Positions 41,928-61,063 of a DNA stretch of 64,000 bases are shown here, one piece after another. The notes under the pieces were generated by a model. It was given only the letters and a program-made list of their open reading frames with translations. It had not been told where the DNA came from and ran no database searches. Source of the DNA: Escherichia coli (GTDB lineage: Bacteria; Pseudomonadota; Gammaproteobacteria; Enterobacterales; Enterobacteriaceae); assembly GCF_001677475.2 (NCBI RefSeq), contig NZ_CP015229.1; one strand, written 5' to 3'. The position numbers and the translations under genes are program-made. How positions within the stretch are numbered: position 1 is the stretch's first letter; every line of letters begins with the position of its first letter.

Positions 41928-41961
41928 CTGTCATAAAGCTGTCACGGCCGAGACTTATAGT
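41928..41961 (+). promoter_or_regulatory. phoA promoter: Pho box (41928..41945) and -10 tatagt (41956..41961)
   Basis: ctgtcataaagctgtcac direct-repeat Pho box replaces the -35, followed by tatagt. Confidence 0.85.
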
Positions 41962-57212: not shown

Positions 57213-57240
57213 CTTTTCATAAATCTGTCATAAATCTGAC
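57213..57240 (+). promoter_or_regulatory. Pho box (tandem CTGTCATAAA repeats) in the phoB promoter
   Basis: cttttcataaatctgtcataaatctgac, two direct 11-bp repeats about 55 bp upstream of the phoB start. Confidence 0.88.
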
Positions 57241-57294
57241 GCATAATGACGTCGCATTAATGATCGCAACCTATTTATTACAACAGGGCAAATC

Positions 57295-58041: not shown

Positions 58042-59337
58042 GTGCTGGAACGGCTGTCGTGGAAAAGGCTGGTGCTGGAGCTGCTACTTTGCTGCCTCCC
58101 GGCTTTCATCCTGGGTGCATTTTTTGGTTACCTGCCCTGGTTTTTGCTGGCATCGGTAACGGGACTGCTTATCTGGCATTTCTGGAATTTATTGCGCCTT
58201 TCATGGTGGCTGTGGGTGGATCGTAGTATGACCCCGCCACCGGGGCGTGGTAGCTGGGAACCGCTGCTATACGGCTTACACCAGATGCAGCTGCGAAATA
58301 AAAAACGCCGCCGTGAACTGGGCAATCTGATTAAACGCTTTCGTAGCGGCGCGGAGTCGCTACCCGACGCGGTGGTGCTGACCACGGAAGAGGGCGGTAT
58401 TTTCTGGTGTAACGGTCTGGCGCAACAGATTCTTGGTTTGCGCTGGCCGGAAGATAACGGGCAGAACATCCTTAACCTGCTGCGTTACCCGGAGTTTACG
58501 CAATATCTGAAAACGCGTGATTTTTCTCGCCCGCTCAATCTGGTGCTCAACACCGGGCGGCATCTGGAAATTCGCGTCATGCCTTATACCCACAAACAGT
58601 TGCTGATGGTGGCGCGTGATGTCACACAAATGCATCAACTGGAAGGGGCGCGGCGTAACTTTTTTGCCAACGTGAGCCATGAGTTACGTACGCCATTGAC
58701 CGTGTTACAGGGTTACCTGGAGATGATGGATGAGCAACCGCTGGAAGGCGCGGTACGTGAAAAAGCGTTGCACACCATGCGCGAGCAGACCCAGCGGATG
58801 GAAGGGCTGGTGAAGCAATTGCTGACGCTGTCGAAAATAGAAGCCGCACCGACGCATTTGCTCAATGAAAAGGTTGATGTGCCGATGATGCTGCGCGTTG
58901 TTGAGCGCGAGGCTCAGACTCTGAGTCAGAAAAAACAGACATTTACCTTTGAGATAGATAACGGCCTCAAGGTGTCTGGCAACGAAGATCAGCTACGCAG
59001 TGCGATTTCGAACCTGGTCTATAACGCCGTGAATCATACACCAGAAGGCACGCATATCACCGTACGCTGGCAGCGAGTGCCGCACGGTGCCGAATTTAGC
59101 GTTGAAGATAACGGACCGGGCATTGCACCGGAGCATATTCCGCGCCTGACCGAACGTTTTTATCGCGTTGATAAAGCGCGTTCCCGGCAAACCGGCGGTA
59201 GCGGATTAGGATTAGCGATCGTGAAACATGCGGTGAATCATCACGAAAGTCGCCTGAATATTGAGAGTACAGTAGGAAAAGGAACACGTTTCAGTTTTGT
59301 TATCCCGGAACGTTTAATTGCCAAAAACAGCGATTAA
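58042..59337 (+). CDS. phoR: phosphate regulon sensor histidine kinase
   Basis: 431-aa ORF with N-terminal TM segments, H-box ([14 protein letters not shown]) and ATPase G-boxes. Confidence 0.96.
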
Positions 59338-59363
59338 TCCGCCTTTGTCATCTTTTATTGCCA

Positions 59364-59395
59364 TAAGCCAGCCGATGCTGGCTTATTTTCTTTGC
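59364..59395 (+). terminator. phoBR intrinsic terminator (10-bp perfect stem ataagccagc / gctggcttat, loop cgat, T-rich tail)
   Basis: Perfect palindrome followed by tttctttg, 27 bp after the phoR stop. Confidence 0.85.
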
Positions 59396-59743
59396 AGTCA
59401 AAATACGGGCGTTAGATTTTACAACGGTTGGTGATTTTTTGTTCGCATGATTAGCCATGTCTTTTTCACGGAAATAGTGTTTTATACTGGTTGGTGATTT
59501 CTTATCGCTATATACCTCTGGTTTTTAGATCCCTCCTTGCTTTAAAACGTTATAAGCGTTTAAATTGCGCTTCAGGTGCTGTCATACTGACTGCATTAAC
59601 GCGGTAAATCGAAAAACTATTCTTCGCCGCGCCTGGTTGGGAGTATTTCCCGCTAATATTGTTTAAATATACCGCTGTATCATCCCCAGGGATTGGCACA
59701 AAAATTTAACGTTACAACACCACATCCACAGGCAGTATGATTT

Positions 59744-61063
59744 ATGACCCATCAATTAAGATCGCGCGATATCATCGCTCTGGGCTTTATGACATTTGCG
59801 TTGTTCGTCGGCGCAGGTAACATTATTTTCCCTCCAATGGTCGGCTTGCAGGCAGGCGAACACGTCTGGACTGCGGCATTCGGCTTCCTCATTACTGCCG
59901 TTGGTCTGCCGGTATTAACGGTAGTGGCGCTGGCGAAAGTTGGCGGCGGTGTTGACAGCCTCAGCACGCCAATCGGTAAAGTCGCTGGCGTACTGCTGGC
60001 AACGGTTTGTTACCTGGCGGTGGGGCCCCTTTTCGCTACGCCGCGTACAGCTACCGTTTCTTTTGAAGTGGGGATTGCGCCGCTGACGGGGGATTCCGCG
60101 CTGCCGCTGTTTATCTACAGCCTGGTCTATTTCGCTATCGTTATTCTGGTTTCGCTCTATCCGGGCAAGCTGCTGGATACCGTGGGCAACTTCCTTGCGC
60201 CGCTGAAAATTATCGCGCTGGTCATCCTGTCTGTTGCCGCAATTATCTGGCCGGCGGGTTCTATCAGCACGGCGACTGAGGCTTATCAAAACGCTGCGTT
60301 TTCTAACGGCTTCGTCAACGGCTATCTGACCATGGATACGCTGGGCGCAATGGTGTTTGGTATCGTTATTGTTAACGCGGCGCGTTCTCGTGGCGTTACC
60401 GAAGCGCGTCTGCTGACCCGTTATACCGTCTGGGCTGGCCTGATGGCGGGTGTTGGTCTGACTCTGCTGTACCTGGCGCTGTTCCGTCTGGGGTCAGACA
60501 GCGCGTCGCTGGTCGATCAGTCTGCAAACGGCGCTGCTATTCTGCATGCTTACGTTCAGCACACCTTTGGCGGCGGCGGTAGCTTCCTGCTGGCGGCGTT
60601 AATCTTCATCGCCTGCCTGGTAACGGCAGTTGGCCTGACCTGTGCTTGTGCAGAATTCTTTGCCCAGTACGTACCGCTCTCTTATCGTACGCTGGTGTTT
60701 ATCCTCGGTGGCTTCTCGATGGTGGTGTCTAACCTCGGCTTGAGCCAGCTGATTCAGATCTCCGTACCGGTGCTGACCGCTATTTATCCGCCGTGTATCG
60801 CACTGGTTGTATTAAGTTTTACACGCTCATGGTGGCATAATTCGTCCCGCGTGATTGCTCCGCCGATGTTTATCAGCCTGCTTTTTGGTATTCTCGACGG
60901 GATCAAAGCATCTGCATTCAGCGATATCTTACCGTCCTGGGCGCAGCGTTTACCGCTGGCCGAACAAGGTCTGGCGTGGTTAATGCCAACAGTGGTGATG
61001 GTGGTTCTGGCCATTATCTGGGATCGCGCGGCAGGTCGTCAGGTGACCTCCAGCGCTCACTAA
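59744..61063 (+). CDS. brnQ: branched-chain amino acid transporter (LIVCS family)
   Basis: 439-aa multi-span membrane protein. Confidence 0.95.

Follow-up and report, generated by a model that had tools for sequence, protein, structure and literature searches.

The direct repeat between phoR and brnQ of Escherichia coli may form linker DNA in a conserved, probably Lrp-associated upstream region of brnQ

The two copies of an imperfect direct repeat in the phoR-brnQ spacer of E. coli are best explained as linker or edge segments within a conserved upstream region of brnQ that is probably occupied by Lrp, and not as paired operator words; we give this reading a probability of roughly 0.55. Under this explanation, the elements held under constraint would be Lrp-like boxes centred at -124, -92 and -61 relative to the brnQ transcription start site, a weaker box at -157, a near-invariant 36-bp block, a T-rich UP-like stretch and the core promoter. 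The original prediction had taken the repeated 21-mers themselves for a pair of cooperative regulator binding sites acting on brnQ, with a leucine-responsive regulator given as an example.

In the window, by which we mean the whole 64,000-nt stretch of DNA that was analysed, phoR ends at 59337 and brnQ starts at 59744 (coding sequence 59744..61063, plus strand, 439 aa), leaving a spacer of 406 bp between them. brnQ (LIV-II) is the low-affinity carrier of branched-chain amino acids. The spacer is present at 95% identity or more in 5,424 of 5,426 complete E. coli genomes, and it carries no annotated feature either in the window or in K-12 MG1655. A terminator scan placed the intrinsic terminator of phoBR at 59363..59395 on the plus strand (hairpin 59363-59386 with a 10-bp stem and a 4-base loop, then a T run), and this terminator is moderately conserved over the 80 Enterobacteriaceae loci described below. 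As had been claimed, the repeat lies after this terminator in the non-coding spacer, and both copies were found where they had been placed: copy 1 (GGTTGGTGATTTTTTGTTCGC) at 59426..59446 and copy 2 (GGTTGGTGATTTCTTATCGC) at 59489..59508, both on the plus strand, with 63 bp from start to start. The claimed distance of about 240-300 bp upstream of brnQ was roughly right, the actual range of 236-318 bp from the ATG being slightly wider.

The two copies share an exact 12-mer, GGTTGGTGATTT, as their first 12 bases, and they match in 18 of 21 columns with one 1-base gap. The likeness reaches further in the 5' direction, as a repeat search aligned 59417-59440 with 59480-59503 at 20 of 24 positions, and when two 1-base gaps are allowed, the extended units 59412-59446 and 59474-59508 (about 35 bp) agree in 28 of 36 columns. 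Copy 1 of K-12 reads GATTGGTGATTT, and the core match there is only 11/12. When the spacer was shuffled with preservation of its dinucleotides, 8 of 1000 shuffles (about 1%) contained an exact direct repeat of 12 bases or more, and 12 of 1000 reached an equal ungapped repeat score. The repeat is mildly non-random; it is nominally significant for one spacer, yet unremarkable given a 64-kb scan.

The position of the copies relative to transcription can be fixed from published data. Kim et al. 2012 (PMC3415461, supplementary file 2) reported a single brnQ start site at NC_000913.2 418,645, with 54 reads and a 170-nt 5' UTR, and the upstream 50-mer printed there is identical to the window, which puts the start site at 59574 on the plus strand. 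With the start at this base, copy 1 covers -148..-128 and copy 2 covers -85..-66. Both copies are promoter-upstream DNA, outside the transcript of the mapped brnQ promoter, and to this extent the regulatory placement proposed for them is upheld. The core promoter spans 59537..59566 on the plus strand, with a -35 hexamer TTGCTT (59537-42), a 17-bp spacer and a -10 hexamer read either as TTAAAT (59560-65) or as TAAATT (59561-66). It is of the sigma-70 type, was assigned by its place relative to the mapped start and is near-invariant in the 80 loci, and a strict consensus promoter scan did not call it. Directly upstream, the conservation profile delimits a T-rich stretch (CTGGTTTTnnGATCCC, 59518..59535, plus strand, about -56..-39) that adjoins the -35 hexamer and may act in the manner of an UP element. 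A GATC (Dam site) at 59529-59532, -45..-42, lies in an invariant GATCCC and adjoins the most promoter-proximal Lrp-like box; it was the sole GATC noticed by eye in the spacer.

For comparison we used 80 brnQ loci from Enterobacteriaceae genomes. phoR adjoins brnQ in 78 of them, the remaining two being cut by contig ends, and the spacer measures about 410 bp in nearly all. A family profile was made from 42 non-redundant sequences, namely 41 non-Escherichia representatives and the window. Over the 80 loci, conservation was extremely high in a stretch that begins at 59517, takes in the promoter and continues over the leading 77 nt of the brnQ UTR. Further upstream there is a near-invariant 36-bp block (GATTTTTTGTTCGCATGATTAGCCATGnnTTTTTC, 59432..59467, -142..-107), which begins inside copy 1 and includes its 3' half; it is kept across about 25 genera, with conservation equal to that of the core promoter and above that of the third codon positions of brnQ. 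Copy 1 accordingly has a variable 5' core (GGTTGGTGA) and a deeply conserved 3' part (TTTTTTGTTCGC).

The repeat as such followed a different course. In the 80-locus alignment, the 5' half of copy 1 was variable and positions 59493-59506 of copy 2 were almost unconstrained, with the ATA word at 59510-13 conserved, and the information content of copy 2 over the 42 non-redundant sequences was near zero. Among 11 Escherichia sequences, the 12-mer cores were the most variable of the upstream parts (5 of 12 and 6 of 12 columns variable, against 0 of 9 in the 3' part of copy 1, 0 of 15 in the stretch 5' of copy 2 and 5 of 65 in the promoter), and the core substitutions in copies 1 and 2 do not co-vary in E. 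albertii or the cryptic clades. The likeness between the copies, measured with gaps over two 63-bp units, gave z = 5.5 in the window, 4.0 in K-12 and about 1.3 in other Escherichia (E. albertii, cryptic clades), with a median z of 0.14 over all 80 loci. Same-register identity, counted over 24 positions, was 17-20 in Escherichia, 10-14 in Citrobacter, 9-13 in Enterobacter and near background elsewhere. There was some same-register similarity between the copies in Kluyvera and Kosakonia, as well as a weak excess of low percentiles in the copy-copy comparison (20% of loci at or below 0.05). The autocorrelation of the profile without Escherichia had no peak at offset 63, and an ancient family-wide tandem duplication of 63 bp was rejected on this ground. 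Judged from these alignments, it is only within Escherichia that the copies resemble each other.

The expectation that both copies would be conserved in related genomes thus failed, as copy 2 holds almost no information, the cores are the most variable parts and the copies do not resemble each other outside Escherichia. The original prediction had itself named a lack of conservation in relatives, along with unchanged brnQ expression on deletion, as grounds for giving it up; the former was found for the repeat as a repeat, but not for the 3' half of copy 1, a part of the deeply conserved block.

Binding of Lrp in this spacer has been listed before. Shimada et al. 2015 (PMC5320599, Table S1) used genomic SELEX, an in vitro tiling-array screen that yielded 314 Lrp sites, and assigned a peak at 418,534, in the phoR>brnQ spacer, to the target operon brnQ-proY. 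With the offset fixed by the mapping of the brnQ start site, this peak falls at 59463 of the window, between the two copies and at the midpoint of the box array 59417-59513. The resolution of such a peak is probably some tens of bases, roughly 50-100 bp. The coordinates of the table appear to follow an older K-12 numbering, because its entries for lrp and leuL-leuO lie at about the positions that we take these genes to have.

We scored the spacer against the Lrp SELEX consensus (YAGHAWATTWTDCTR), which has 15 positions and is degenerate and A+T-rich. The spacer holds one match of 13/15, one of 12/15 and five of 11/15, whereas the whole window predicts, per 406 bp, 0.08 matches at 13 or better, 0.45 at 12 or better and 2.6 at 11 or better. 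Averaged over the 42 sequences, the score peaked at 59506-20, 59475-89 and 59443-57, and among 1000 scrambled consensus controls, 3 reached the top mean score and 1 the sum of the top three. The first of these candidate boxes in the direction of transcription, box 1 (TGGCTAATCATGCGA, 59443..59457, minus strand, 11/15, centre -124), lies inside the 36-bp block and has a family mean of 10.4. Box 2 (TAGTGTTTTATACTG, 59475..59489, plus strand, 13/15, centre -92) forms the 5' extension of copy 2, is invariant in Escherichia and has a family mean of 10.86. Box 3 (CGCTATATACCTCTG, 59506..59520, centre -61) scores 10/15 in E. coli and has the highest family mean, 11.86; its counterparts in, for example, Klebsiella and Raoultella (TAGCATAATCATCTG) score 12-13/15 by manual count. 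The weak box 0 (CGTTAGATTTTACAA, 59410..59424, 11/15, centre -157) is the 5' extension of copy 1 and has a family mean of only 8.4. The spacing is 32 and 31 bp between boxes 1-3, with box 0 another 33 bp upstream. A Fourier test for a period of 30-33 bp over the whole spacer was not significant, as 86 of 300 scrambled controls were as high.

Two of these values count against the Lrp-box reading, namely the score of only 10/15 for box 3 in E. coli and the family-wide weakness of box 0. Inside the repeated 21-mers themselves, the best 15-mers reach 10/15 and 9/15 against the Lrp consensus, which is near background. The guess of a leucine-responsive regulator is therefore favoured for the region, with its SELEX peak and boxes, and disfavoured for the repeated words; likewise, the comparison of the repeat with known binding sites found its matches in the flanking boxes and not in the 21-mers. 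In the searchable literature, we found neither data on Lrp- or leucine-dependent expression of brnQ nor a description of its transcriptional control.

Lrp is known to assemble on several adjacent sites. We propose that it most likely occupies the Lrp-like boxes upstream of brnQ, and it may contact exactly boxes 1-3 and regulate brnQ from them. That the box sites are clear of the core promoter suggests that Lrp would act in an architectural or activating way. Each repeat unit would be made up of a box, its following linker and the opening bases of the next box, with copy 2 as the linker between boxes 2 and 3. Box 0 with its linker and the start of box 1 would in this way resemble box 2 with its linker and the start of box 3, and the period of the repeat would be 63 bp because the units recur at every second box, that is, after two steps of 31-32 bp. 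The identity of the linkers, seen in Escherichia only, would be left over from a local duplication of two boxes or from gene conversion, or be in part a matter of chance, and would not be selected. The conservation of the 36-bp block goes far past the needs of a degenerate Lrp site; hence, an additional factor or an overlapping function is likely at this block.

A natural deletion shows what the repeat can do. In E. coli A39 (NZ_CP028737.1), which came from a wild rodent, the spacer is 343 bp long (locus L086 327-669), with exactly 63 bp missing. The lost segment corresponds to 59426..59488, the breakpoint being ambiguous within the 12-bp identity (59426-37 or 59489-500); the junction, TTTTACAAC joined to GGTTGGTGATTTC, falls inside this identity and one hybrid copy is kept. 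The deletion takes out the 36-bp block and box 2 and leaves brnQ intact, and boxes 0 and 3 end up 33 bp apart, so that the box spacing is preserved. A query with the junction found this allele in 1 of 5,424 E. coli genomes. The loss of exactly one period with retention of a hybrid copy resembles RecA-independent slippage deletions, and in A39 this single event follows from the repeat and does not amount to a function of it. Serving as the substrate for a slippage-type deletion of 63 bp is the sole demonstrated effect of the repeat.

Smaller differences were also seen in the copies. Strain XJ6.1 carries T>C at the 7th base of both copies (59432 and 59495) together with A>G at the 9th base of copy 2 (59497), and FACU 2024 carries the 9th-base A>G in copy 1 (59434). 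These changes could come from gene conversion between the copies or from mutational hot spots, and the parallel T>C in XJ6.1 may be a hint that the copies are coupled in some way. Two or more differences from the window in copy 2 are present in about 151 genomes.

Several other explanations have to be weighed against the linker reading. The retention of the 36-bp block and of the box positions over about 25 genera, above the level of the third codon positions of brnQ, is difficult to reconcile with a neutral origin, in which the repeat would be a chance product or decaying relic in T-rich low-complexity DNA, the segment would have no role in E. coli and the Lrp peak would reflect non-functional binding to A+T-rich DNA. 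The uniform spacer length of about 410 bp in nearly all loci, the rarity of the deletion allele and an Lrp-likeness of the conserved columns that exceeds the scrambled controls point in the same direction. A chance of about 1% for each single spacer in a window that has many of them, the variable cores, the survival of the A39 isolate without the 63 bp and the large number of sites that Lrp binds in vitro would all agree with neutrality, and we regard it as unlikely. The proposal that the GGTTGGTGATTT-containing 21-mers themselves are paired recognition sites, six helical turns apart, by which a cooperative regulator (Lrp or another) controls brnQ, is improbable in our view. It draws on the rarity of the exact 12-mer repeat in shuffles, on the location of the copies upstream of the promoter with the Lrp SELEX peak between them, on the 17-20 of 24 positions kept throughout Escherichia and on the same T>C in both copies of XJ6.1. 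The Lrp sites of pap have been described with a loose GN2-3TTT motif, which GTGATTT would fit. However, the cores are the most variable parts within Escherichia, with substitutions that do not co-vary in E. albertii or the cryptic clades, copy 2 is almost without information family-wide, the copies do not resemble each other outside Escherichia, and their match to the Lrp consensus is just 9-10/15, with no CRP or Pho-box match.

A conservation of the block far beyond what a degenerate Lrp site would require could also mean that the block, with the T tracts of both copies, binds another specific regulator, or forms bent DNA by which DNA further upstream is positioned on RNA polymerase. Peaks of predicted local curvature near 59400, 59480 and 59520 (97th to 99.9th percentile of the window in a wedge model) and T tracts of the copies that are 62-63 bp apart and in helical phase are in keeping with this. 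Yet none of the known consensus sequences compared with the block fits it (CRP and Pho box by scanning; IHF, Fis, sigma-54, sigma-32, PurR, MetJ, ArgR and others by eye), the curvature peaks lie near and not on the repeat cores, copy 2 has a T tract that lacks conservation, and those T tracts that are conserved do not keep a consistent phase. That the region works by a non-Lrp factor or by DNA shape is in our view unlikely. It is as improbable as the paired 21-mers that the block is the site of a dedicated further regulator of branched-chain amino-acid uptake, or the promoter of an unannotated transcript, working together with Lrp, while the repeat of Escherichia would be kept alike by gene conversion as a phase-preserving slippage switch. 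On this view, the A39 allele would have removed the block and two Lrp boxes, leaving the rest 33 bp apart.

Other candidate elements were tried against the spacer. The Pho box (CTGTCATAWAWCTGTCAY) had no match in the spacer within 3 mismatches; as controls, the same scan found two overlapping boxes in the phoB promoter (57214-57242) and one box with 1 mismatch at 41928-41945, just upstream of phoA (ORF from about 41966). The word CTGTCAT at 59579 varies within the family and does not qualify as a Pho box. The CRP site TGTGA-N6-TCACA likewise had no match in the spacer within 2 mismatches. A sigma-54 promoter in the 36-bp block was dismissed by eye, since the spacing of TGGC-N8-GC is wrong, and a terminator-like hairpin of the form CATG...CATG followed by a T run was dismissed by eye as well, its pairing not being conserved. 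A dispersed repeat family was rejected, as the sequence occurs at one place per genome in 5,424 genomes. A 16-codon ORF at 59447-59497 (MISHVFFTEIVFYTGW), which starts just after copy 1 and stops in copy 2, has its ATG in only 58 of 80 loci, varies in length from 7 to 38 codons and is upstream of the only mapped start site; a minus-strand ORF of 36 aa (59348-59458) loses its start in Kluyvera, as judged by eye. An Rfam scan at E<=10 gave a spurious tmRNA fragment as the sole match and no RNA family, and for the sRNA EsrL, which was suspected at this spacer, the citing papers give no location.

The linker reading gains some context from known Lrp-controlled regions. ilvIH of E. coli is a classical multi-site Lrp-activated promoter, at which Lrp sites have been footprinted and leucine-responsive activation has been demonstrated. 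Like brnQ, it has several Lrp-consensus-like boxes 5' of a sigma-70 promoter and clear of the core promoter, and the same scoring gave 14, 12, 11, 11 and 11 of 15 for ilvIH against 13, 12 and five matches at 11 for the brnQ spacer. The difference is that Lrp binding at brnQ is known from a low-resolution in vitro SELEX peak; in addition, we know of no ilvIH counterpart of the 36-bp block. The regions of pap and related fimbriae contain two groups of three Lrp sites each, spaced by about three turns of the helix. The brnQ boxes recall these in their spacing of about 31-32 bp and in the conserved GATC at the promoter-proximal end, but brnQ has one GATC, no second GATC-bearing site set and no PapI-like partner gene nearby, and for these reasons phase variation at brnQ is not suggested. 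The liv genes have the same substrate class and candidate regulator as brnQ, and all of these genes are post-transcriptional GcvB targets; however, regulation by Lrp and leucine is experimentally established for the liv genes. In comparison with liv, box positions from -61 to -157 at brnQ do not suggest simple occlusion of the promoter.

Multi-site Lrp regions 5' of amino-acid transport genes are textbook material. The brnQ region adds one more case to them, with Lrp binding already listed for it at low resolution, and the result is largely ordinary and of small practical value. Nevertheless, the analysis places the published low-resolution peak on specific conserved boxes relative to the mapped brnQ start, and it singles out the bases of the boxes and of the 36-bp block, in place of the repeated 12-mers, as those worth mutating. 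The A39 deletion allele could serve as a ready-made natural test.

The transcribed part of the spacer has conserved features of its own. The first 77 nt of the 170-nt leader (59574-59650) are near-invariant in the 80 Enterobacteriaceae loci and have no Rfam match. They contain a candidate hairpin with stems at 59599-59604 and 59627-59632 (GCGYGG/CCRCGC) and a conserved loop (TAAATCGAAAAACTATTCTTCG), and its stems show C-G to U-A exchanges between genera; the covariation is modest, as 74% of cells are paired where shuffles give 72%, and double changes number 13 compared with 7.9. Just 5' of the brnQ start codon, the conservation profile has an invariant C/A-rich stretch (ACAACACCACATCCACAGGCAGTA, 59714..59737, plus strand), which is probably the pairing site of GcvB R1; brnQ is listed as a GcvB R1 target that was verified in Salmonella and is conserved in E. 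coli (PMC9299463). At 59694-59709, TGGCAC-N5-TTTAA resembles the -24 element of a sigma-54 promoter, lacks the -12 GC and is not conserved beyond Escherichia. A genomic SELEX peak for RpoN+NtrC at 418,832 (about 59761 of the window) has been assigned to the phoR-brnQ spacer (PMC8743547).

Two genomes differ near the phoBR end of the spacer. In Escherichia sp. MOD1-EC7003 (L004 1354-2090), about 740 bp of tandem REP/BIME-like repeats lie between the phoR stop codon and the remaining spacer; the insertion contains a spurious ORF of 232 aa with a repeating RRERLIRPTKHAISID motif, and the brnQ upstream region beyond it is intact. In E. coli GDSC2BY4G (NZ_CP136025.1), the spacer matches only from query base 51 on, in two places, which suggests an insertion or rearrangement at the phoBR terminator.
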